Shown here: positions 797-12,766 of the stretch, one piece after another
How the letters are laid out: each line of letters starts with the position of its first letter
Position numbering within the stretch: the first letter of the stretch is position 1
From: a plasmid
NCBI RefSeq assembly: GCF_056746865.1
Contig: NZ_JBWKMP010000007.1
Direction: 5' to 3' (one strand)
Length of the DNA: 12,766 bases
Program-made: the position numbers and the translations under genes
Notes under the pieces: generated by a model
Told to the model about the DNA's origin: nothing
Databases searched by the model: none
The model's input: the letters and a program-made list of their open reading frames with translations, nothing else

Positions 797-1153
797 ATGG
801 GGGTAATGATACCGATGAAACGCGAGAGGATGCTCACGATACGGGTTACTGATGATGAACATGCCCGGTTACTGGAACGCTGTGAGGGTAAACAACTGGC
901 GGTATGGATGCGGCGGGTCTGCCTGGGGGAGCCGGTTGCCCGTTCCGGGAAGCTGCCGACACTGGCACCGCCGTTACTGCGTCAGCTGGCCGCCATCGGG
1001 AATAACCTGAATCAGACCGCGAGGAAGGTGAACAGCGGGCAGTGGTCTTCCGGTGATCGGGTTCAGGTGGTGGCCGCACTGATGGCCATCGGGGATGAGC
1101 TGCGCCGGCTGCGTCTGGCCGTCAGGGAACAGGGGGCGCGGGATGATAGTTAA
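797..1153 (+). CDS. mbeC: Mobilisation accessory protein MbeC (MobC-like relaxosome component)
   Basis: 118-aa ORF immediately upstream of and overlapping the relaxase gene, in the ColE1 mbeC position. Start codon uncertain (ATG at 797, 806 or 815); purine-rich stretch aagggggga upstream. Confidence 0.75.
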   Translation: MGVMIPMKRERMLTIRVTDDEHARLLERCEGKQLAVWMRRVCLGEPVARSGKLPTLAPPLLRQLAAIGNNLNQTARKVNSGQWSSGDRVQVVAALMAIGDELRRLRLAVREQGARDDS

Positions 1154-2717
1154 ATTTCATGCCAGGGGAAAAGGTGGTGGCAGTGGTCCGGTTGATTACC
1201 TGCTGGGGAGGGAGCGTAACCGCGAAGGCGCAACGGTGCTTCAGGGTAATCCGGAAGAAGTCCGGGAACTCATCGATGCCACGCCATTTGCGAAGAAATA
1301 CACGTCAGGCGTTCTGTCGTTCGCGGAGAAGGAGTTGCCGCCGGGAGGACGTGAAAAAGTGATGGCGAGCTTTGAGCGCGTACTGATGCCAGGTCTCGAA
1401 AAGAATCAGTACAGCATCCTGTGGGTGGAGCACCAGGACAAGGGACGGCTTGAGCTGAATTTTGTCATTCCGAACATGGAGCTACAGACCGGAAAACGTC
1501 TCCAGCCGTACTACGACCGGGCAGACAGGCCGAGAATTGATGCCTGGCAGACGCTGGTGAATCACCATTACGGGCTGCATGACCCCAACGCCCCGGAGAA
1601 CCGCCGGATACTGACTCTCTCTGATAACCTGCCGGAAACGAAACAGGCGCTTGCTGAGAGCGTCACACGCGGGATAGACGCTCTTTATCATGTAGGGGAG
1701 ATAAAAGGCCGTCAGGATGTGATTCAGGCGCTCACAGAGGCGGGGCTTGAAGTGGTCAGGGTGACGCGAAGCAGCATCAGCATTGCAGACCCGAACGGCG
1801 GGAAGAATATCAGGCTGAAAGGAGCGTTTTATGAGCAATCTTTTACAGACGGGCGCGGAGTTCGAGAAAAAGCTGAAAGAGAGAGCCGAATCTACAGAGA
1901 AAGTGCTGAACAACGAGTTCAGGAGGCTCGGCGAATCTGTAAGCGAGGTTGTGACATCAAACGAGACGAAAATCAGAGACGCTATAGCCCTGTTCACAGC
2001 CTCGACAGAGGAATCGCTGGAGAAACACCGGGAAGGGGTGAAAGAGGCGATGAGGCAGCACAGGAAGGACGTGTTAAAGCTGGCAGGGAATACGGGCATG
2101 ATGTTACTGGGGATAGTCTTTCTCCTGTTTACCGCGAGTGGCGGGACGCTCTGGTATCTTGGCGGGAGGATACAGGCGAACCTGGAAGATATCAGGAAGC
2201 AGGAAGAGACATTGCAGAAACTGAACGCGAAGACATGGGGCGTGGAGTTCGTGCAGGACGGGAACAGGAAATTTCTGGTCCTTCCGTACGGGAAATCAGC
2301 AGAGGTGATTCCCTTTCAGGGGAAAGAGTGGGTACATCTGAAGGAGTGACACAGAGTGACAGAGCTGGAAACACATTTGCTGAACGCCTTAGAGCAGCTG
2401 CAACAGGACTATATGCAGCGGCTGAACGAATGGGAGAGCGCCTTCGTGGAATTGCAGAAGATGTTTTCGCTTACGCAACGGGACAACGCGATGCTGAACG
2501 AGCGGGTCATGCAGTTGAGTCAGCAGGTGCAGCACTTGAGCGAGCAGACAGAACACTTGAGCGAGCAGACAGAACACTTGAGCCAGTTATACAGCGAGAG
2601 CAGGAGATAAGGGACGAACTACTGATACAGGAACGTGAACATGAGCTATTCCTAGAGCGTGAGCGCCATCTGGAAATACAGGAACGGACACTGGATGGCC
2701 CGTCGCTGGGATGGTAA
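1143..2717 (+). CDS. mbeA: ColE1-type relaxase MbeA (MobA, HEN/MOB-P family)
   Basis: 524-aa ORF starting MIVKFHARGKGGGSGPVDYLLG with internal ATG at 1143, matching ColE1 MbeA from memory. Contains WVEHQDKGRLELNFV region. Overlaps mbeC 3' end by 11 nt. Confidence 0.9.
   Translation: MIVKFHARGKGGGSGPVDYLLGRERNREGATVLQGNPEEVRELIDATPFAKKYTSGVLSFAEKELPPGGREKVMASFERVLMPGLEKNQYSILWVEHQDKGRLELNFVIPNMELQTGKRLQPYYDRADRPRIDAWQTLVNHHYGLHDPNAPENRRILTLSDNLPETKQALAESVTRGIDALYHVGEIKGRQDVIQALTEAGLEVVRVTRSSISIADPNGGKNIRLKGAFYEQSFTDGRGVREKAERESRIYRESAEQRVQEARRICKRGCDIKRDENQRRYSPVHSLDRGIAGETPGRGERGDEAAQEGRVKAGREYGHDVTGDSLSPVYREWRDALVSWREDTGEPGRYQEAGRDIAETEREDMGRGVRAGREQEISGPSVREISRGDSLSGERVGTSEGVTQSDRAGNTFAERLRAAATGLYAAAERMGERLRGIAEDVFAYATGQRDAERAGHAVESAGAALERADRTLERADRTLEPVIQREQEIRDELLIQEREHELFLERERHLEIQERTLDGPSLGW
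1831..2349 (+). CDS. mbeB: Mobilisation protein MbeB, encoded in the +1 frame inside mbeA
   Basis: 172-aa ORF fully nested in mbeA in another frame, with a hydrophobic segment (MMLLGIVFLLFTASGGTLWYL). Same size and position as ColE1 MbeB as I recall it. Confidence 0.7.
   Translation: MSNLLQTGAEFEKKLKERAESTEKVLNNEFRRLGESVSEVVTSNETKIRDAIALFTASTEESLEKHREGVKEAMRQHRKDVLKLAGNTGMMLLGIVFLLFTASGGTLWYLGGRIQANLEDIRKQEETLQKLNAKTWGVEFVQDGNRKFLVLPYGKSAEVIPFQGKEWVHLKE
2356..2610 (+). CDS. mbeD: Mobilisation protein MbeD (about 9 kDa), nested in the 3' part of mbeA; GTG start
   Basis: 84-codon ORF beginning with GTG at 2356 directly after the mbeB stop (2347-2349). Coiled-coil-like sequence. Position and size match ColE1 mbeD from memory. 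Confidence 0.55.
   Translation: MTELETHLLNALEQLQQDYMQRLNEWESAFVELQKMFSLTQRDNAMLNERVMQLSQQVQHLSEQTEHLSEQTEHLSQLYSESRR
2533..2583. repeat. Perfect 21-bp tandem duplication (cacttgagcgagcagacagaa x2, plus 9-bp partial third copy) inside overlapping mbeA/mbeD
   Basis: Direct reading: units at 2533-2553 and 2554-2574, partial at 2575-2583. In frame in both genes (ERADRTL x2 in MbeA, EQTEHLS x2 in MbeD). Confidence 0.9.
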
Positions 2718-2825
2718 CCAAAGACAGGCTAAAGTGTTGTCAGCGCGTTTCCGGTGCATTTTTTTGGATAATGGTTGGTTCAGGGCACTAGGAACTAGCT
2801 TCAGTCAGGCCTTGCTGAAAACACA

Positions 2826-2961
2826 GGAACGCGTTAAAACGCATACGGACGCGTTTCTGGCGCTCAAAAACCATGGGGTTAGTGTGGGTAGTGTGTATAG
2901 CAACAGGAGCCTGGAACGCGTTCCGCTTCTTCTGTAATCGACGCCAGAATGCGTTTAATGC
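2826..2961. promoter_or_regulatory. Cluster of dyad-symmetric motifs (GGAACGCGTT x2 including perfect palindrome GGAACGCGTTCC; inverted pair gacgcgtttctggcgc / gacgccagaatgcgttt)
   Basis: Direct reading: ggaacgcgtt at 2826-2835 and 2913-2922; gacgcgtttctggcgc at 2848-2863 with inverted partner cgccagaatgcg at 2942-2953. Function unknown; may be protein-binding sites. Confidence 0.3.
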
Positions 2962-3100
2962 TTCTTCTGATGGTATCAGAGAGGAGCTGCTTGAGTTATT
3001 CCTGTTGGCCACAGAGCGTAATTATCTCCTTTTCAGATCCACACGGGGATACGTCAGAATCGGAACTGAGCAAGGATTACTGAAAGATACTGTTTGCCAG

Positions 3101-3125
3101 AAAAAAAATCCTCATACATGATGAG
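3101..3125 (-). terminator. Hairpin followed by T8 on the minus strand (candidate intrinsic terminator for minus-strand transcription leaving the AT-rich island)
   Basis: Plus strand aaaaaaaatcctcatacatgatgaggat: 8-bp stem atcctcat/atgaggat, 5-nt loop. The A8 run on plus becomes a U-tract after the stem on the minus strand. Confidence 0.45.
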
Positions 3126-3420
3126 GATAAAGTCTTAAAGGTCCATTCTATGGAGTGTCGGATTGAAAAATTTCTCCGGATGATATCCTTCACAGTTTAA
3201 ATGTGATTTCAACCATAAGTTTTTTATGGATTTTGTTAAATAAAAAAGAATTGAGTCGTGTTTCTGATATGTCTGAATATAATAAGTGAACAGTTATAAA
3301 ATAATTGTTTTATATTTATTGTGAGTTTGATGTTATGTTCTGCATAAATAACTGTAGTTTAGAATATTATTCTTTTATATTTATAGCTGTGAGATGATAA
3401 ATTATAAGTGTTCTTTGTGC

Positions 3421-3448
3421 TATAAAGAACCCCCCGTATAAGGGGGGG
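3421..3448 (-). terminator. C6/G7 hairpin (ccccccgtataaggggggg) with U-rich tail on the minus strand
   Basis: Stem 3430-3435 / 3442-3448. Minus-strand reading gives the stem followed by ttcttta. Confidence 0.35.
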
Positions 3449-3564
3449 TAAAAGATGGGTTTACTTCTTTTTAGTCCATGCCCTGGTGAGCTACATGAAG
3501 CTCGACACTACAGTAAAGATTTGCAGTTTTTTTGAACTTTACGCAAGCAATTTATTTACATTGT

Positions 3565-3593
3565 AAAGAAAACCCCCTCAATTCCGGAGGGGG
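3565..3593 (-). terminator. Hairpin ccccctc-aattccg-gaggggg with U-tract on the minus strand
   Basis: Stem 3573-3579 / 3587-3593. The plus-strand A-run 3566-3572 becomes ttttctt 3' of the stem on the minus strand. Confidence 0.4.
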
Positions 3594-3898
3594 AGTGTAG
3601 GGAAGTGCCTGATTTATTTTATGTACGCGCAAAAATGAGATAGCTTTTATTAGATATCATCAGCCCTGTCTGCATCAGTCAGCTCCTTACAGCGTCAGGA
3701 GTACTGATGAAGGGGGGGAACGTTCCTGCGTTTTTGCAAAGGCAATCCGGCTAGAGGCTTTACTACGCAGAAACATTCCGGACAACTTTTTACCCCAGTG
3801 TAACTTGTAGATCAACCAGATTTTGTTGCAGTAAAAATACAGTGGTTTCGAATTTGTAACATTTGTCACAAAAATAACATCAATATGTTGGTTTTCTG

Positions 3899-3928
3899 TT
3901 GATAAATGGTTTGGTCGCTGATTATGAT
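3899..3928 (+). promoter_or_regulatory. Sigma70-like promoter candidate (TTGATA, 18-bp spacer, TATGAT)
   Basis: -35 ttgata at 3899-3904; -10 tatgat at 3923-3928. Followed by a leader hairpin gtactcc/ggagtac (3935-3952) that would sequester the AGGAG at 3944-3948. Confidence 0.3.
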
Positions 3929-3992
3929 TTCCTTGTACTCCACAGGAGTACAGTCATGTGCATACTAAAATCCGTGTTTTCGATAAAATTAA

Positions 3993-4020
3993 GGCCGTGA
4001 TACAGAATCACGGCTTTTTT
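3993..4020 (+). terminator. Rho-independent terminator (ggccgtga-tacagaa-tcacggc + T6)
   Basis: 7-8-bp GC-rich stem 3993-4000 / 4008-4014, T-run 4015-4020. Confidence 0.6.
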
Positions 4021-4056
4021 CTTGCCTGAAAGGATCATTTACGCTAGAAGAATTAT

Positions 4057-4119
4057 GAGCGCGTCTCTGGTGTTTGTTGCAGGGATAATATCTAATATGG
4101 GGCACCGGAAACGCGCTCT
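4057..4119. repeat. Dyad module A: 16-bp imperfect inverted repeat (gagcgcgtctctggtg ... caccggaaacgcgctc) around a loop of about 31 nt
   Basis: Direct reading. Paralogous to module B; the arms differ from B by a compensatory change (gcgcg/cgcgc in A versus gcgtg/cacgc in B). Confidence 0.5.
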
Positions 4120-4197
4120 CCCTTCGTATACAGAATGCCCATTAATTTCTTCTTCCTGATTTTCCAGACATATATTCTTGTGTAAATTAAAAAACAG

Positions 4198-4272
4198 AGC
4201 GTGTTTCTGGTGTGAATTTGTTGGCTACAATGTGCATTGTTGTTCTGTGTTCCAGAAACACGCTTCTTTTTT
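4198..4272. repeat. Dyad module B: 13-bp perfect inverted repeat (agcgtgtttctgg ... ccagaaacacgct), loop about 38 nt, A-run upstream and T6 downstream (bidirectional terminator-like)
   Basis: Direct reading: arms 4199-4211 and 4252-4264, T-run 4267-4272, A-run 4190-4195. Confidence 0.5.
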
Positions 4273-4395
4273 GAGATGCACATCGGTCTTATACAAAGAG
4301 GGATGGTTGTATCTGTGTCAGAGTTTTGTTATTTTTTGTATGCTCAGTTATTGATGGTTAATAATATCAAGAAAATCAGCAAGTTCCTTACACTA

Positions 4396-4421
4396 CCCCT
4401 CTTCAGTAGAGGGGTTTTTTT
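4396..4421 (+). terminator. Rho-independent terminator (cccctct-tcagt-agagggg + T7)
   Basis: Stem 4396-4402 / 4408-4414, T-run 4415-4421. Confidence 0.65.
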
Positions 4422-4490
4422 ATCTGGTACGCCGTAAAACCCGGTCCTTCAGGGCGTAGAGGATGTCAAAAATTTCTTCGAAAGGTAATA

Positions 4491-4721
4491 CCCGGTATCC
4501 CGCTCATGCTGGCGAACCCAGACACGCAGGGTCTCTGGCGTACAGCCAATCTTTGGAGCAATGGAACAAATTGCCGCCCATTGTGAGTCATATTCGCCCT
4601 GGCTTTCCAGAACCATACGAACTGCCCGTTGACGGACTTCGGGGGAAAAACGAGTATTTTTAGTCATCCTGTTTACATCTTTCTCAGGAAGTTTAGTCTC
4701 CAGGATTTCCGGGGCGGTTCA
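4491..4721 (-). mobile_element. 5' remnant of an IS3-family element (IS629/IS1203-like): terminal inverted repeat plus the first 59 codons of orfA, truncated
   Basis: Minus-strand ORF 4449..4667 begins [59 protein letters not shown], which matches IS629-type OrfA from memory, then diverges into an unrelated 13-aa tail. The reverse complement of 4690-4721 is the IS-end-like tgaaccgccccggaaatcctggagactaaac. Confidence 0.7.
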
Positions 4722-4949
4722 GTCCGGCAGAGATAAATTGCCACGGGAAGTTAGAGAAAAGTGCGGGAAAATGTCTTAAGAATGATTCTGGAAGAACGAA
4801 AAGTAAGAAGCGCAAAGGCTATGAGGGCAAAAGAGTATCGTGCCGCAGCGAATACTTTTACCTGGCAGCCTGTACAGCGCAGGTGAATAGACATTCCCCT
4901 GACTCATCCTGCTCCCCTTGGCGGCGAAGGGGATTAATCCCTATCCTGT

Positions 4950-5200
4950 AACTTCTATTTTGTGGAATCGAAAACAGCTGAAAATTGTGAAAAAAAACCG
5001 TTTCAGTCGTCTCAGTAAGGAAATTCGCTTGTGATTCACCTGGATGCATAGGTATGCATAAGGTTAAAATTTATCAGGCGCGATCGCGGTAGTTTTTCGG
5101 GGGGGTTGTTGCGATTTTTACCTGTCTGCTGCCGTGATTGCGCTGAATGCATTTCAGCGGTGCGTACAATTAAGGGATTATGGTAAATCCACTTACTGTC
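4950..5200. other. cer: cer-like multimer resolution site with XerC/XerD core ggtgcgtacaa-ttaaggga-ttatggtaaat at 5159-5188
   Basis: Core is identical to the ColE1 cer crossover site as I recall it. Upstream accessory region (gcataaggttaaaatttatcaggcgcgatcgcgg ...) also resembles cer, including paired tgcata half-sites near 5042-5060 (possible ArgR box). Confidence 0.7.
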
Positions 5201-5612
5201 TTCCCTCGTAGCCATCGAGATAAACCGCAGAAATCGTCTCAGCCAGCAGCCTGGATTTTTTCGGGGTAAGGTCTTTGCTGCGGTAATCAGTACCCGCAAA
5301 TTGAGTTGTGCCCCGGAGTGAGTTTAAAAATTCCTGGCTGTGAAACTGCTGAATGCGTTGCTGCACATCACTCCGTGATTTTCCTGTCGCTTTATCCTTT
5401 GCTCCCATATCCCAGAACTGCCGGAAAAAAGGCACCATCATTCGTGTTGTGTCGGCCTTCTGGGTGGAAAAGTTAGGATCAAAACCATCGTCTGATGCAT
5501 AAACGTAATGCCGGGTATGTTGTTCCACACTGCCCTTTGGCGTGCAGGCTGTCAGGACCGTTGCCGCTGTCAGCAGGGCGATAAGATACAGTGTGCCGCC
5601 GGAACGTCTCAT
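5193..5612 (-). CDS. Putative lipoprotein of unknown function (139 aa; signal peptide with lipobox LTAC)
   Basis: N-terminus MRRSGGTLYLIALLTAATVLTAC has a basic n-region, hydrophobic core and L-T-A-C lipobox. Mature protein is hydrophilic. I do not recognise the family. Confidence 0.55.
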   Translation of the reverse strand: MRRSGGTLYLIALLTAATVLTACTPKGSVEQHTRHYVYASDDGFDPNFSTQKADTTRMMVPFFRQFWDMGAKDKATGKSRSDVQQRIQQFHSQEFLNSLRGTTQFAGTDYRSKDLTPKKSRLLAETISAVYLDGYEGRQ

Positions 5613-5695
5613 GAGTGTCTCCTTACCTTTAAATCTTTGTACTCAGTGACTTATATTTAACCGCTGACTATCTTATCATCACTTGCAGTCGGTGC

Positions 5696-6133
5696 TCACC
5701 GGCTGAACAGTCTGGCCCAGAATCCCCGTTTTTTTTCCTGCTCCAGTGCCTGCCTGAGCTGCTCTATCTCTTTATGTAGCTGTTCCCGTTCGGCTTCCTG
5801 GCGCCGGCGTTCCGTAGCCTGTGCCTGTTTGTCCTCAAGCATCAGTGTCAGGCATTGTCTCAGCTCATTCAGCTCCCGGAGAATGCGTTCTGTCTGCTGA
5901 TCATGTGGATTTTCTGCCTGTCCCGCACTGTGCCTTTCTGGTGTCTCATCCTGCTTTAATTCGCCGTATGCCCGGATCAGTTCACTGGTTTCAAACTCCC
6001 GCCGTCCGTCCTGGCCTGTACGATAACTGACAAGGCCTGCGCGCATATCACGGTAAAACTGTGAACGCGATCTGCCTGTCATTTTCAGTGCGTTCTGGAG
6101 TGTGTGCCATGCCATGAAGTGACAGTGTCCCAT
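5696..6133 (-). CDS. Putative small DNA-binding protein with N-terminal helix-turn-helix-like segment and C-terminal coiled coil (start codon ambiguous)
   Basis: AWHTLQNALKMTGRSRSQFYRDMRAGLVSY looks like an HTH. C-terminus RRRQEAEREQLHKEIEQLRQALEQEKKR is a charged heptad-like helix. No strong RBS at any of the three candidate ATGs. Confidence 0.5.
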   Translation of the reverse strand: MGHCHFMAWHTLQNALKMTGRSRSQFYRDMRAGLVSYRTGQDGRREFETSELIRAYGELKQDETPERHSAGQAENPHDQQTERILRELNELRQCLTLMLEDKQAQATERRRQEAEREQLHKEIEQLRQALEQEKKRGFWARLFSR

Positions 6134-6392: not shown

Positions 6393-7456
6393 ATGGAAAC
6401 AGCTGTAGCGTACTATAAAGATGGTGTTCCTTATGATGATAAGGGGCAGGTAATCATTACTCTTTTGAATGGTAATCCAGACGGGAGTGGCTCTGGCGGC
6501 GGTGGTGGAACTGGAGGTAGCAAAAGTGAAAGTTCTGCAGCCATTCATGCCACAGCTAAATGGTCTACTGCTCAATTGAAGAAAACGCAGGCAGAACAGG
6601 CTGCCCGGGCAAAAGCTGCCGCAGAAGCACAGGCTAAAGCAAAAGCAAACCGGGATGCGCTGACTCAACATCTGAAGGATATTGTGAATGAGGCGCTTCG
6701 TCATAATTCCACTCATCCGGAGGTTATTGACCTGGCTCATGCCAATAATGCAGCGATGCAGGCAGAAGCAGAGCGGTTGCGCCTTGCAAAAGCAGAAGAA
6801 AAAGCCCGTAAAGAAGCGGAAGCTGCGGAAAAGGCTTTTCAGGAGGCAGAACAACGACGCAAAGAGATAGAGAAGGAGCAGGCTGAAACAGAACGCCAGT
6901 TGAAACTGGCTGAAGCTGAAGAGAAACGGCTGGCAGCATTGAATGAAGAGGCCCGGGCAGTGGAGGTGGCACAAAAAAATCTTGCTGCTGCACAATCTGA
7001 GCTGGCGAAAGTGGATGAAGAGATTAAGACTCTCAATACCCGTTTAAGCTCCAGTATTCATGCCCGTGATGCAGAAATGAATACGCTGTCCGGAAAACGA
7101 AATGAGCTGGCTCAGGCATCTGCTAAATATAAGGAACTTGATGAACTGGTCAAAAAATTGTCACCAAGAGCTAATGATCCGCTTCAGAGTCGTCCTTTTT
7201 TCTATGCCACCAGTCGACGGACGGGAGCCGGTAAGATTATGGAGGAAAACAAAAACAGGTAACAGCATCAGAAACGCGTATTAACCAACTTAATGCTGAG
7301 ATAAATGGAATTCAGGGGGCTATGTCTCAGGCTAATAATAATCGTAATACAGCTGTTTTACGTGTTCATGAATCTGAAGAAAATTTGAAAACAGCGCAGA
7401 CTAATCTCCTGAACTCGCAGATTAAGGATGCTGTGGATGCAACAGTTAGCTTTTAT
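6393..7456 (+). pseudogene. cea: Colicin E1-type gene, 5' part (translocation and receptor-binding domains), with a 1-nt frameshift in an A-run (7246-7249) and truncated by the IS21-family insertion at 7456/7457
   Basis: METAVAYYKDGVPYDDKGQVIITLLNGNPDGSGSGGGGG... matches colicin E1 from memory. Frame 0 stops at 7260-7262; the colicin-like reading continues in the -1 frame (VTASETRIN...DAVDATVSFY) to 7456. Confidence 0.85.
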
Positions 7457-7658
7457 TGCAAAATGGCATCTGAATCGATCGCAGTTTGGCATTCGAATCG
7501 ATCATGATTTGGCATCCATCTCCGATCACAGTTTGGCATCACAATCGATCACGATTTGGCATGCTTCCGATCATTGATTGGCATCCTGCCAGTCACTCCG
7601 GGAATTAACTCTTTTCACCACAGTCTCCATTGCCGTGTTTAAACCAGTGGAGACGTCA

Positions 7659-9224
7659 ATGTCCAGAAAGAGAAAATCCAGGAGCACTATGGAAACCTGT
7701 TTTAAGATTCTTCAGCTCAAGTTCGACAAGAAGCTGACTAACCGTTGTATCGGACTGACGTTACACATCAGCGCCTCAACCGTTTTTGAGGTTCTTGCCC
7801 GCTTCAAAGCCTCTTCTCTGTCATGGCCATTACCTGCTGATATATCCCATGACACGCTGGAGAAACTCATTTTTCCGCCCAAAGACACCTTTGCATCAGA
7901 GCTTGTAATGCCTGACATGTTGTACCTCGATACGGAAATGAGAAAACCAGGTGTGACGCGGCAACTGTTGTGGATGGAATACAAGGCACAGGCGGGTAAC
8001 AAAGCGATGGGATACTCGCACTTCTGCCGTTGCTACCGGGAGTGGAAAAAAACGCGACGTCTCTCCATGCGCCAGGAGCATCGTGCCGGCGAAAAGCTTT
8101 TTATCGACTTCTGTGGTCCTACGGTTCCTGTTATTAATCCGGACACCGGTGAGATACGCCGCGTGGCAATCTTCGTGGCCGTAATGGGGGCGTCCAACTA
8201 TACCTACGTTGAAGCGTGCGAAGGTCAGGACATGATGTCATGGTTAAATGCCCACAGCCGTTGCCTGACCTTCCTGGGCGGCGTACCGAAGCTGCTCATC
8301 CCCGATAACCTCAGAAGCGCAGTGAAAAAGGCCGATCGATATGAGCCTGTCATCAACGACAGTTATCAGGCACTGGCTGAGCACTATGGCACGGTTATCA
8401 TCCCGGCCCGACCACGCAAACCTAAAGATAAACCAAAAGCAGAAAACGGCGTCCTCATCGTCGAACGATGGCTTCTTGCCCGCATCCGTAATGAAACCTT
8501 CCACACGCTCAGGGCGCTGAATGCGCGCCTTAGGGAGTTACTGACAGACATGAATAACCGGCCAATGAAGGGGTACGGCAATCAAACCCGTGCAGAACGC
8601 TTCCGCATACTGGATGCGCCAGCACTCTCTCCGCTGCCTCTGGCACCTTATGAATACACGGAATACAAAGCTGTGAAGGTTGGCCCTGACTACCACGTTG
8701 AATATGCCCGTCACTGGTACTCCGTTCCACACGAACTGGTCGGTCAGCGTCTGTCACTGAAGGCGGGGCAGTCGGTGGTACAGCTCTGGCACAAGGGGCA
8801 GTGTGTGGCGCAACATCCGCGCAGCACACATGAATATAAACACACAACCAATCCGCTTCACATGCCAGAGCGCCACCGGCAGCACGGGACATGGACACCG
8901 GAACGCCTGATCGAGCAGGGAAAACGTACGGGCCCGTCCACAGGCCGGGTGGTTGAATCCATGCTGAAGGCAAAACCCCATCCGGAACTGGCTTATCGTG
9001 CAGTTCTGGGGCTGCTGGCACTTCAGAAAAAATACGGCCCGGAACGGCTGGAAAAGGCCTGTTACGTTGCCCTGCACTATAACGCCCCTGACAGACGCTT
9101 TATCGACAATCTGCTGCGTCACCATCGGGAGAACCTGGAGCTTCCATTATCCCGCCAGGGCGAACAACATCCGGCATATGCTTCAGAGCATGAAAACCTG
9201 CGTGGTCCGGGCTACTACCACTGA
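7659..9224 (+). CDS. istA: IS21-family transposase IstA (521 aa)
   Basis: Long ORF with a DDE-type integrase core and the IstA-typical layout; followed 16 nt later by istB. ATG at 7659 preceded by ggag. Confidence 0.85.
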   Translation: MSRKRKSRSTMETCFKILQLKFDKKLTNRCIGLTLHISASTVFEVLARFKASSLSWPLPADISHDTLEKLIFPPKDTFASELVMPDMLYLDTEMRKPGVTRQLLWMEYKAQAGNKAMGYSHFCRCYREWKKTRRLSMRQEHRAGEKLFIDFCGPTVPVINPDTGEIRRVAIFVAVMGASNYTYVEACEGQDMMSWLNAHSRCLTFLGGVPKLLIPDNLRSAVKKADRYEPVINDSYQALAEHYGTVIIPARPRKPKDKPKAENGVLIVERWLLARIRNETFHTLRALNARLRELLTDMNNRPMKGYGNQTRAERFRILDAPALSPLPLAPYEYTEYKAVKVGPDYHVEYARHWYSVPHELVGQRLSLKAGQSVVQLWHKGQCVAQHPRSTHEYKHTTNPLHMPERHRQHGTWTPERLIEQGKRTGPSTGRVVESMLKAKPHPELAYRAVLGLLALQKKYGPERLEKACYVALHYNAPDRRFIDNLLRHHRENLELPLSRQGEQHPAYASEHENLRGPGYYH

Positions 9225-9240
9225 CAGAAGGAACAACAGT

Positions 9241-9996
9241 ATGAGTGATAACCTGTTAAACAAACTGACCCAACTGAAACTCCCGGCGATGGCCGGGAGC
9301 CTGATACGGCAGCGGGAAACGCCTCAGACCTACGACGAACTGTCGTTCGAGGAAAGGCTGACGCTGCTGGTTGATGACGAGCTTCTGAGCAGGGAAAACA
9401 GCCGTGTGGCACGGTTGAGAAAAAATGCCGGCCTGAAATACCAGGCAACACCGGAAGGGCTGCGCTATCCGGCCTCAAGAGGTCTGCGGGCTGAACAGAT
9501 GAGAGAACTGCTGAACGGCCACTACATAACCCACAGGAAAAACCTGCTGATAACCGGTCCGACAGGATGTGGCAAGAGCTGGATAGCCAATGCGCTGGGC
9601 GAACAGGCATGTCGACAGAAACACAGCGTCCGGTACTGTAGAACCGGGCGATTACTGGAACAACTGGCTCAGGGACGTGTTGATGGCAGCTGGCTGAAAT
9701 ATCTGAAACAGTTGCAAAAAATACAGGTTCTAATCCTGGACGATCTGGGGCTGGAACAGTTAAGTAACGCCCAGTGTAATGACCTTCTGGAGCTCATAGA
9801 GGATCGTTACGGACAAAGCAGCACGATAGTGGTAAGCCAGTTCCCGGTAGATAAATGGCATGGTCTGATGGAGAACCCAACAACAGCAGATGCCATCCTG
9901 GACAGACTGGTACATAACTCACACCGGGTGGTCCTTCAGGGAGAGTCACTGAGGAAAAATCCCCCGGTAGTGGAAAGCAGCGAAAAAACGCGTTAA
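9241..9996 (+). CDS. istB: IS21-family helper ATPase IstB (251 aa)
   Basis: Walker A GPTGCGKS and Walker B VLILDDLG motifs. RBS gaagga upstream of the ATG at 9241. Confidence 0.9.
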   Translation: MSDNLLNKLTQLKLPAMAGSLIRQRETPQTYDELSFEERLTLLVDDELLSRENSRVARLRKNAGLKYQATPEGLRYPASRGLRAEQMRELLNGHYITHRKNLLITGPTGCGKSWIANALGEQACRQKHSVRYCRTGRLLEQLAQGRVDGSWLKYLKQLQKIQVLILDDLGLEQLSNAQCNDLLELIEDRYGQSSTIVVSQFPVDKWHGLMENPTTADAILDRLVHNSHRVVLQGESLRKNPPVVESSEKTR

Positions 9997-10095
9997 AAAG
10001 CGGTAGAAAAAGTTAAGTTCCCGGTTGATCGAATGGATGCGAATCGCTGATCGGACTTCGATGCCAATCCGTGATCGAATAGAGCGGAATACGCA

Positions 10096-10593
10096 CTTTT
10101 ATCAAACGCTATCTGAAAAATATGGTGAAAAATATTCAAAAATGGCACAGGAACTTGCTGATAAGTCTAAAGGTAAGAAAATCAGCAATGTGAATGAAGC
10201 TCTAGCTGCTTTTGAAAAATACAAGGATGTTTTAAATAAGAAATTCAGCAAAGCAGACCGTGATGCGATTTTCAATGCACTGGAATCGGTTAAGTATGAA
10301 GACTGGGCTAAGCATTTAGATCAGTTTGCTAAGTACTTGAAGATTACGGGACATGTTTCTTTTGGATATGATGTGGTATCTGATATCCTAAAAATTAAGG
10401 ATACAGGTGACTGGAAGCCACTATTTCTTACATTAGAGAAGAAAACTGTAGATGCTGGAGTTAGTTATATTGTTTTAGTGTGCTTGCTGGAACTACATTA
10501 GGTATCTGGGGGATTGCTATTGTTACAGGCATTCTATGTGCCTTTATTGACAAGAATAAACTTAATACTATAAATGATGTGTTGGGTATTTAA
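10096..10593 (+). pseudogene. cea: Colicin E1-type gene, 3' part (pore-forming domain), carrying a roughly 10-nt deletion/frameshift near 10473 in the hydrophobic helical hairpin
   Basis: [28 protein letters not shown]...[20 protein letters not shown] matches the colicin E1 channel domain from memory. Frame stops at 10499-10501; the remaining C-terminus ([35 protein letters not shown]) is in another frame ending at 10591-10593. Confidence 0.8.
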
Positions 10594-10931
10594 TTATTCT
10601 TTATTGATATAAACAGTCCTAGCAATCCAAATGGGATTGCTAGGACCAAACAAAGTAGATTGTATAGCATAAATAGGTTTAATTTTGCCACGGGGGCATT
10701 ATTTAGATTTTTTCTTTTTCTGAAAAAATCTTTCTTTATGAACTTAAAAAATATGTGTTCAATAGCATATTTTGAATATGGGCATAGAATAGTGCTTATC
10801 ACGATTGCGTATAGCATCTTATCTGACGCTAGGAAATAATACCCTTCGTTGTTTTTTGTTATAAGGTATATATATATAAGTGTGCAATATAGGCCAAACA
10901 AAATGTTTTTTATGTAGTATCTTAAACTCAT
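10590..10931 (-). CDS. imm: Colicin E1 immunity protein (113 aa, integral membrane), intact
   Basis: [113 protein letters not shown] matches ColE1 Imm from memory. Convergent with cea. Confidence 0.9.
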
Positions 10932-10978: not shown

Positions 10979-11040
10979 ATGAGGAAAAGATTTTTTGTGG
11001 GAATATTAGCTATAAACCTCCTTGTTGGATGTCAGGCTAA
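10979..11040 (+). pseudogene. kil: Colicin lysis (release) lipoprotein gene, 5' part (MRKRFFVGILAINLLVGCQA...), interrupted by IS5 after codon 20
   Basis: RBS taagga; signal peptide with lipobox LVGC as in ColE1 Kil. Reading frame enters the IS5 end at 11041. Confidence 0.8.
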
Positions 11041-12235
<1,195 letters not shown>

Positions 12236-12315
12236 CTAACTATATACGTGATGTTCAGGGAGGGACTGTGGCTCCATCATCTTCTTCTAAACTGACGGGG
12301 ATCTCTGTTCAGTAG
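12236..12315 (+). pseudogene. kil: Colicin lysis lipoprotein gene, 3' part (...[25 protein letters not shown])
   Basis: Continues the kil frame across the CTAA duplication; stop at 12313-12315. Confidence 0.8.
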
Positions 12316-12370: not shown

Positions 12371-12766
12371 GTAAACGAAAAAACCGCCTGGGGAGGCGGT
12401 TTGATCGAAGGTTAAGTCAGTTGGGGAACTGCTTAACCGAGGTAACTGGCTTCAGCAGAGCGCAGATACCAAATACTGTCCTTCCAGTGTAGCCGTAGTC
12501 GGGCCACTACTTCAAGAACTCTGTTGCACCATTTGCGCCATCATCGCTCTGCTAACCAAGTTACCAACGGCTGCTGCCAGTGGCGCTTTGTCGTGTCTTA
12601 CCGGGTTGGACTCAAGACGATAGTTACCGGATAAGGCGCAGCGGTCGGGCTGAACGGGGGGTTCGTGCACACAGCCCAGCTTGGAGCGAACGACCTACAC
12701 CGAACTGAGATACCAACAGCGTGAGCTATGAGAAAGCGCCACGCTTCCCGAAGGGAGAAAGGCGGA
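12371..12766 (+). ncRNA. RNAII: RNA II replication primer precursor, 5' portion (continues into 1-about 160 if circular)
   Basis: Homology by eye to the ColE1 RNA II 5' region, with stem-loops such as ccgcctggggaggcgg (12384-12399). Downstream sequence is near-identical to pMB1 (ggtaactggcttcagcagagcgcagataccaaatactgtcctt...). Confidence 0.75.
12372..12479 (-). ncRNA. RNAI: RNA I antisense copy-number control RNA (about 108 nt)
   Basis: Complement of the first roughly 108 nt of RNA II. The minus strand begins acagtatttggtatctgcgctctgctgaagccagttacc as in pMB1 RNA I, and ends in a stem-loop plus U-tract (complement of aaaaaaccgcctggggaggcgg). Confidence 0.7.

Follow-up and report, generated by a model that had tools for sequence, protein, structure and literature searches.

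The window analysed here is a stretch of 12,766 nucleotides from a plasmid (NCBI RefSeq assembly GCF_056746865.1, contig NZ_JBWKMP010000007.1), and our subject is an AT-rich, non-coding island within it, at positions 3126–4440. The window is a ColE1-type colicin plasmid, with RNAI detected at 12375–12477 on the minus strand in an Rfam scan. A reading made from the sequence alone had placed the island between the mobilisation (mob) genes and cer, and it does lie there, flanked on the left by mbeA and on the right by an XerC/XerD site that we take to be the cer core from established knowledge of the ColE1 cer consensus (Table 1). ColE1 backbone homology, common to about 800 plasmids, stops at 2860 and restarts at 4982, so that, judged by this homology, the foreign segment is 2861–4981 and larger than the island itself. 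It contains a left-hand piece (2861–3099), the AT-rich island, a 50-bp repeat that we call the R element, a remnant of an IS629-like insertion sequence (IS), and a truncated open reading frame (ORF) of an 81-aa family.

Of 72,556 plasmids, about 40 carry similar DNA, as do 36 of the 5,426 complete E. coli genomes. All carriers are E. coli, the DNA is never chromosomal, and every carrier plasmid is mobilisable or conjugative. The copies fall into three lineages. Lineage A consists of ColE1-like plasmids with colicin 10-like or colicin R genes, which differ by at most 1.2%. Lineage B is an 81–82% identical copy on IncK/IncI-type conjugative plasmids, where the fragment starts at window position 2847 and lies between pemIK and trbC, with IS3-family and other IS elements around it. 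Lineage C is carried by Col8282-type Rep_3/MobQ plasmids of 5.3–5.6 kb, with the modules reordered in a 1.7-kb unannotated region. Wider scans, which used the most conserved 22-mer of the island as query (the core of unit T1, described below), returned one chance match inside a coding region among GTDB species representatives, nothing in viral contigs and, in JGI metagenomes, no more than a single chance match besides lineages A, B and C. Because these scans added no lineage, the covariation evidence below is limited to three. Searches of the literature on pSMS35_8, colicin R, mbeE and Col8282 turned up no account of the island region.

Two side observations concern the carriers. Plasmids of lineages A, B and C often share one E. 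coli strain (for example LH10-b-1, GF43, TUM1886, strain 135, PKF4 and PKF11), and these strains are mostly poultry-associated isolates. Upstream of their Rep_3 gene, Col8282-type plasmids carry 22-bp iterons (AGGCAATATGATTTAAGGTAA) in direct and inverted orientation (607–745 in plasmid L013), and the 1.7 kb of unannotated, structured DNA lies downstream of the same gene.

The island is non-coding. Its GC content is low (0.28–0.43 over 3001–4500, against 0.49–0.64 in the mob region), its longest ORF has 66 aa, and more than 30 PGAP-annotated public records leave this same DNA without a feature, in agreement with the earlier description of an AT-rich region that lacks a credible gene. Six-frame translations of the island had no match in NCBIfam, and a concatenated six-frame query had none among 5.8 billion proteins. 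Among the insertions and deletions that separate lineages A and B, 15 of 17 are not multiples of three and 2 are; similarity between A and C is equal across all frames, and stops occur in every frame. Only three ORFs, of 14, 26 and 34 aa, are intact in both A and B, and none encodes a membrane helix. The 14-aa ORF, inside T1, is reduced to ATG-TAA in lineage C. The 26-aa ORF (MGLLLFSPCPGELHEARHYSKDLQFF) shows one non-synonymous, two synonymous and one stop-to-stop change between A and B, is frameshifted in the ColR plasmid L009, varies in its Shine-Dalgarno spacing and is missing from lineage C. That it is a genuine gene is improbable. The 34-aa ORF (4055–4159) has no Shine-Dalgarno site and has accumulated six non-synonymous against two synonymous changes. 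As RNA, the island is equally unfamiliar: at the gathering thresholds of Rfam 15 the window yields only RNAI, which lies outside the island, and a permissive scan gave top island matches of 13–22 bits, against family thresholds of 40–144.

What the island does contain is a high density of terminator-type hairpins. We scanned for intrinsic terminators, defined as a G+C-rich stem with a loop of 3–8 nt and a T-run directly after it on the transcribed strand, and obtained nine hits, corresponding to six distinct hairpins, against 1.4 ± 1.3 hits in shuffled sequences. By sequence form, these six hairpins are candidate terminators. The scan bears out the dense hairpin structure noted from the sequence alone and recovers both plus-strand terminators and all three minus-strand hairpins that had been listed; the sixth is the dyad at 4190–4272 (D2), which has a T-run at its end. 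The three candidates in the left half face leftward and the three in the right half face rightward. The flanking mob operon (rightward) and exc operon (leftward) are convergent, and terminators against their read-through would face the opposite way. Because all the terminators point outward, their promoters should be internal to the island. Apart from T1, it is mainly this geometry that favours internal non-coding transcription units. Hairpin strand preference matches it, with D3 favouring the minus strand on the left and D1 and D2 the plus strand on the right.

Conservation of the island is patchy and follows these units. Across the island as a whole, lineages A and B share 82% identity, with perfect runs of 38, 37, 35 and 51 nt beside stretches of 45–60% identity; from 18% divergence we calculate, by our own arithmetic, that about 0.2 runs of at least 35 nt would be expected. 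Blocks of 97–100% identity match the promoter-to-terminator and hairpin units and alternate with stretches of about 55%. Positions that are invariant in lineage C, which is 61% identical, coincide with the same cores, namely the D3 loop, the T1 core and T2. A short block at 3309–3375 is also about 70% similar to lineage C.

The best-defined unit is T1, a candidate small RNA (sRNA) of about 88 nt. A 7-bp 5′ hairpin (3934–3950) buries AGGAG and is followed by a 45-nt A/U-rich single strand, which holds CGTGTTTTCGATAA..TTAAGG (3973–3994), a 22-nt core invariant in A, B and C. An 11-bp terminator closes the unit. Conservation between A and B starts just upstream of the T1 −10 element, at about 3917, and is unbroken over 3944–3994, the 51-nt perfect run. 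In lineage B the promoter reads TTGCCG-18-TATGAT, with the −10 element kept, the terminator loop is inverted, and one C-G pair has become U-A by compensatory change. The fold has z = −4.4 in A and in B. Two candidate relationships of T1 were rejected: a 15-nt match that would let it pair with 4269–4283 is not conserved in B, and the likeness of its core to the Col8282 iteron is, by eye, a shared 7-mer and no more.

T2 and M2 are C-rich, paralogous 65-nt modules in inverted orientation, identical at 24 of 29 positions by our count from the alignment. One covariance model finds both across all lineages at 64–86 bits (74.7 for M2), with no further members beyond a marginal match at 3419–3475. The terminator stems of T1 and T2 vary between lineages with pairing kept; for T2 the stem differs among A, B and C, and each retains the hairpin. 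A promoter-like site, TTGTAT-18-AATAAT, whose −10 element ends at 4365, accompanies the T2 leader and is kept in A and B.

In hairpin D3, three base pairs have changed in compensatory fashion between A/B and C, and 88% of cells are paired, against 32–53% in slid controls. Folding energies are −27/−33/−25 kcal/mol on the minus strand against −20/−24/−23 kcal/mol on the plus strand, and the minus strand is favoured by 1–10 kcal/mol. The plus-strand mismatches are all C·A, which are G·U on the minus strand. The check for covariation in homologues that accompanied the sequence-only reading thus shows compensatory change in D3, in one pair of the T1 terminator and in the backbone dyad d1 considered next, and no significant covariation in T2/M2.

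The paralogous dyads reported earlier are real and of two kinds: the terminator modules M2 and T2, and the long-loop hairpins D1 and D2. The second kind leads back to the ColE1 backbone. Ordinary ColE1-like plasmids have two conserved 62–66-nt long-loop hairpins, d1 and d2, after the mbeA stop (1715–1905 in L012; 2741–2860 in the window). Compared over stem and loop, D1 scores 24 against d1 and 7.2 in shuffles (z = 13); D2 gives z = 8.3 against d1 and 7.1 against d2. Six copies of the arm motif GCGYGTYTCTGG are present in the window, where 0.19 would be expected. The d1/d2 family is characterised by arms GCGYGTTTCTGG / CCRGAAACRCGC, a loop of 30–45 nt and a total length of 62–69 nt, and D1 and D2 conform; D2 has the form of a long-loop terminator and has lost 14 nt of its loop in lineage B. 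In the ColE1-like plasmids L012 and L028, d1 folds at −31 to −34 kcal/mol on the plus strand, and across plasmids one of its stem pairs runs through the series C-G, U·G, U-A. The plus strand is favoured by 4–10 kcal/mol in D1, D2, d1, d2 and the lineage C dyad Cb, and by 0.7 kcal/mol in Ca; for the backbone dyads this stabler strand is the strand of the mob mRNA. The lineage C dyads resemble d1 and d2 in their arms only (z = 2–3).

On this homology, D1 and D2 are diverged copies of the two backbone hairpins directly behind mbeA, about 220 bp of the island (D1–D2) is paralogous to the ColE1 backbone, and the island is not wholly foreign to ColE1. The earlier statement that the island is not recognised from the ColE1 backbone is consequently partly wrong, as it fails for D1 and D2. 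The junction of backbone and foreign DNA, at 2860/2861, falls directly after the 5′ arm of d2, and lineage B starts at the same arm. Because both breaks lie there, the island probably entered, or was reshuffled, by recombination at repeated dyad arms. In some records the backbone dyads are annotated as a hypothetical protein of 122 aa, and indels in other plasmids break this reading frame; the function of these dyads appears undescribed.

Table 1. Features of the island and its surroundings, in window coordinates (A, B and C are the lineages)
Feature	Position	Strand	Description
mbeA	1095–2717		mob operon runs rightward
Backbone dyad d1	2741–2802	+	just past the mbeA stop; degenerate here, intact in other ColE1-like plasmids
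5′ arm of d2 (ACGCGTTTCTGG)	2849–2860	+	last stretch of backbone homology; homology to lineage B from 2847 on
Left part of foreign segment	2861–3099	.	normal GC; non-coding/degenerate; A/B indels of 8, 12 and 1 nt break frames
Candidate terminator for leftward transcripts	3100–3128	−	8-bp stem and 8-T run; stem and loop identical in A and B
38-nt block	3133–3170	−	100% identical in A and B; directly upstream (minus strand) of the 3128 terminator
Variable, most AT-rich stretch	3200–3440	.	27% GC; about 45–60% identity A/B
C/G-rich hairpin	3429–3449	−	terminator-like; weak in lineage B; marginal T2/M2 family member (E = 0.12)
26-aa ORF	3455–3535	+	Shine-Dalgarno site; block about 95% identical A vs B
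M2	3563–3628	−	65-nt module: AAATCAG..TTCCYTACACT, hairpin 3573–3593, T-run
D3	3717–3780	−	15-bp stem, 33-nt loop with invariant ATCCGGCTAGAG; kept in A, B and C
T1 promoter, sigma-70-like	3899–3928	+	TTGATA-18-TATGAT, 10/12
T1	3935–4023	+	candidate ~88-nt sRNA: 5′ hairpin, A/U-rich single strand, terminator and U-run
D1	4057–4118	+	16-bp stem, 30-nt loop; z = −3.4; −31.3 (plus) vs −25.2 (minus) kcal/mol
D2	4190–4272 (dyad 4197–4265)	+	14-bp stem with A/T extension, 41-nt loop, T-run; z = −4.4
T2 leader	4304–4359	+	97% A/B, 83% to C; poly-T tract of variable length
T2	4360–4424	+	65-nt module; terminator 4395–4415 and 7-T run; 86 bits
R element (GGTRCGCCGTAAAACCCNGTCCTTCAGGGCRTRGAGGATGTCAA)	4419–4469	+	50-bp repeat; absent from lineage B; three copies on Col8282 plasmids
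IS3-family (IS629/IS1203-like) remnant	4491–4721	−	231 bp; absent from ColR plasmid L009
3′ remnant of 81-aa basic ORF (WP_045148228.1 family)	4722–4886	+	truncated by the IS remnant
cer XerC/XerD core (GGTGCGTACAATTAAGGGATTATGGTAAAT)	5159–5188	+	right-hand backbone marker; read from sequence
exc2 and exc1	5193–6133	−	exc operon runs leftward, convergent with mob
Pore-forming colicin gene	start 6393
Immunity gene	10590–10931
Plus-strand terminators	3991–4017 and 4395–4415	+	candidates by sequence form
Minus-strand terminator-type hairpins	3128–3108, 3449–3429 and 3593–3573	−	candidates by sequence form

We read the island, tentatively and at a rough probability of 0.45, as a cluster of small non-coding RNA units, portable structured modules that would act as RNA. 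This is the best reading because the DNA is non-coding, is shared among plasmids, is conserved unit by unit, carries compensatory changes and shows an RNA-like strand asymmetry; the presence of the modules on three unrelated plasmid backbones also counts towards it. In kind, the units are plasmid small RNAs, terminators and mRNA 3′ hairpins, and they belong to no described family. The suggestion of small RNAs made from the sequence alone thus survives as the best account of the island, though not in the form of the type I toxin-antitoxin system it offered as an example.

From sequence we infer transcription, RNA ends, mode of action and any phenotype as follows. Transcription would begin within the island and proceed outward in both directions, and in each of these two arms intrinsic terminators would stop it short of mob (left) or cer (right). 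The leftward arm, on the minus strand, would comprise hairpin D3, the terminator module M2 and two further terminators; the rightward arm, on the plus strand, would comprise T1, the hairpins D1 and D2, and then T2. T1 would be an RNA of about 88 nt made from its own sigma-70-type promoter and may act by base pairing through its core, either on a host or plasmid mRNA or on an antisense minus-strand transcript. T2 and M2 may be paralogous RNAs of about 50 nt, or the 3′ ends of longer ones. D1 and D2, as copies of hairpins that would close the mob mRNA, are putative RNA 3′-end or stability structures. A role as a sponge for CsrA was rejected, since GGA occurs 15 times on the plus and 17 times on the minus strand against 15.9 ± 3.5 expected.

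Several results weigh against RNA units. Promoter-like sites are present, as had been noted, but their number is not enriched over chance (7 against 4.1 ± 1.5 expected), and we found no conserved minus-strand promoter for the leftward arm. Within the window, neither a complement of the T1 core nor a target for any island RNA was found. In lineage C, T1 has a fold of z = −0.5 and lacks the promoter, the 5′ hairpin and a strong terminator; all that remains is the core's primary sequence, a pattern that would suit a DNA-binding site too. In the T2/M2 stem 83% of cells are paired, and covariation is no better than in shuffles. All covariation evidence comes from three lineages only. Finally, gene conversion could explain some of the identical patches, because carriers of A, B and C often share a cell.

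This last point feeds the strongest competing explanation, which we judge unlikely: that the island is functionless recombination debris, made up of leftover 3′ ends, hairpins and IS scars, with identical patches that reflect recent gene conversion. The island is a mosaic in which module order is rearranged between A/B and C; there is an IS remnant in A and there are IS flanks in B; the backbone junction lies exactly at a repeated dyad arm. The DNA is rare, with about 40 carriers among the plasmids and none in GTDB species representatives, its A, B and C carriers occur in the same strains, and single modules have decayed (the 3429 hairpin in B, T1 in C). Debris would not, however, be expected to have identical blocks that match unit boundaries, with cores that remain invariant in a lineage only 61% identical, nor compensatory pairs in D3 and the T1 terminator, nor a consistent strand asymmetry of hairpin stability. 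In addition, deletion from small plasmids should be easy, yet 1.3 kb of non-coding DNA appears to have persisted there through about 18% divergence.

A second alternative, considerably less probable, is that the hairpins are cis-acting DNA sites, either single-strand initiation (ssi) or primosome-assembly hairpins that prime synthesis after mobilisation, or protein-binding sites. That all carriers are mobilisable or conjugative fits this idea, as does hairpin length (62–69 nt), which is close to that of known priming hairpins, and the T1 core is conserved in primary sequence where RNA structure is lost. The strands give a divided answer. The nic site of oriT, GTATACTGG/CTTAG on the minus strand at about 427, makes minus the transferred strand, on which D3 is indeed stabler, but D1, D2 and the backbone dyads are stabler on the plus, non-transferred strand, and the position of the nic site implies that the island is among the last parts to reach the recipient, immediately ahead of mob. 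The motif AAGCGG is absent and no DnaA box is conserved. Iterons and tandem repeats are lacking as well, the only repeats being short and in two copies, which also leaves the partition-like sites proposed from the sequence alone unsupported; and outward-facing terminators with T-runs would go unexplained.

Equally doubtful is a more specific form of the small-RNA reading, in which T1 with its core, the T2/M2 family and D3 would be a portable set of exchanged regulatory RNAs engaged in plasmid-to-plasmid or plasmid-to-host cross-talk. Plasmids of the ColE1-like Col, Col8282 and IncK/I types would then tune a common host target, or each other, and would exchange modules in shared poultry- and human-associated E. 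coli cells. Such a system would be without a described relative.

A type I toxin-antitoxin locus, the example given by the sequence-only reading, is very unlikely. The toxin would be the 26-aa or the 34-aa peptide and the antitoxin an antisense RNA from M2/T2 or T1. In both A and B the 26-aa ORF retains start, stop and Shine-Dalgarno site, and most of its changes are silent; it lies between two minus-strand terminators, with M2 and the 3429 hairpin on the opposite strand; the start codon of the 34-aa ORF is at the base of hairpin D1; and T2, given its identity to M2, could pair with plus-strand RNA that crosses 3586–3615. Yet neither peptide has a membrane helix, the shared ORFs are lost or frameshifted in some lineages, and the faults of each noted above (a disrupted frame and variable Shine-Dalgarno spacing in one, no Shine-Dalgarno site and mostly non-synonymous change in the other) count against a toxin gene. 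No Rfam toxin-antitoxin RNA family and no protein matched, and no promoter was found for M2 or the 3429 hairpin.

Still less probable is a non-autonomous mobile element (a miniature inverted-repeat transposable element, MITE) of 860 bp at 3563–4424, with M2 and T2 as its 65-bp terminal inverted repeats. The two modules are paralogous and inverted, flank 730 bp, and occur on three backbones, but there is no target-site duplication at 3563/4424, no empty site, presence/absence polymorphism or independent insertion was seen, T2 is present only once in lineage C and the modules there stand in another order, and no transposase is associated. The remains of one or more degraded protein genes, least probable of all, are suggested by a 128-aa ORF annotated in one lineage B record and an 82-aa ORF that lineage A holds in the left flank of normal GC (2861–3126), but in A the 128-aa ORF measures 60 aa and lineage C does not retain it, most indels shift the frame, and no six-frame family or protein homology emerged, short and very diverged remnants aside; nor do homologues show the longer degraded gene that the sequence-only reading had named as its refutation.

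The right-hand end of the foreign segment holds further elements. The R element occurs on Col8282 plasmids three times (2327–2377, 2589–2639 and 3154–3212 in L013), including an inverted pair of 51 bp with 92% complementarity that encloses 211 bp. Stx1-converting phages have a copy with 89% identity some 40 nt upstream of stx1A (L027, 701–755), and this 55-bp R element is the only match between the island and the phage collection. Its candidacy as a XerC half-site was rejected, since by eye only GGTGCG is in common. The IS629-like remnant is a secondary insertion, because it is absent from the ColR plasmid L009. The ORF that it truncates encodes a very basic 81-aa protein (MSWMKLTEAERKR...) and has a strong Shine-Dalgarno site and no Pfam domain; it is intact on IncK plasmids (L003, 8728–8973) and frameshifted in the ColR plasmid (L009, 5440–5684), and rare homologues adjoin rop on 3.9-kb plasmids. 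A link between this ORF and the island was rejected, since ORF homologues occur on other small plasmids without island modules.

Elsewhere in the window, both lethal genes are disrupted by insertions (6393–10564 and 10979–12315). An IS21-family element at about 7457–10095 splits the colicin gene, and an IS5-family element at 11041–12235, flanked by a CTAA duplication, splits the lysis gene. The nearest public records are 8.9-kb plasmids, 99.5–99.7% identical to the window, and these two elements account for the 3.8 kb by which it exceeds them.

Small mobilisable plasmids are usually described by their replication origin, mob genes and cargo, and DNA without annotation is passed over. In the present Col plasmid, conserved non-coding DNA makes up about 15%, and its modules also occur on two unrelated backbones in the same strains. 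If expressed, the modules would be new plasmid-borne small RNAs, and they would suggest a function for the hairpins behind the mob operon, in a region matched in about 800 ColE1-like records, a subset of them through the dyads. If not expressed, the locus would still be a record of non-coding modules shuffled between plasmids through recombination at a repeated hairpin arm. Either way, the consequences for plasmid biology are probably modest and local. What is new is the portability of modules among three co-resident plasmid types, the outward geometry of the terminators and the paralogy with the ColE1 mob hairpins.

Among known systems, type I loci such as hok/sok and par of pAD1 share with the island their small ORFs with sequestered starts and their plasmid location, and with its predicted units the convergent short RNAs with terminators; the island differs in having no hydrophobic toxin, no ORF conserved across lineages and no family match. 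The ssi and primosome-assembly hairpins are likewise about 60–70 nt long and lie in non-coding DNA of mobilisable plasmids, and D3 favours the transferred strand as they would; D1 and D2 favour the other, and AAGCGG is missing. The non-coding region of Col8282-type (Rep_3/MobQ) plasmids, itself unannotated and uncharacterised, has T2 (83%), the T1 block with D3 (61%), three copies of R and two dyads with the same arm motif, but in another module order, with a degenerate T1 and without M2, the 26-aa block or counterparts of the D1/D2 loops.

Plasmid antisense and regulatory RNAs (ColE1 RNAI, Rcd of cer, Sok, FinP and CopA) resemble the predicted units in their size of 50–90 nt, sigma-70-type promoter, stem-loops, exposed single strand, intrinsic terminator and intergenic plasmid site; the island differs in having no Rfam match and no complementary target found, and T1 lies opposite no gene. 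Closest to home are the ColE1 backbone dyads d1 and d2, with which D1 and D2 share the arm motif GCGYGTTTCTGG, a length of 62–69 nt and the preference for the plus strand. The island copies are about 30% diverged from these dyads and stand 1.2 kb away from the mob operon, and D2 has gained a T-run.

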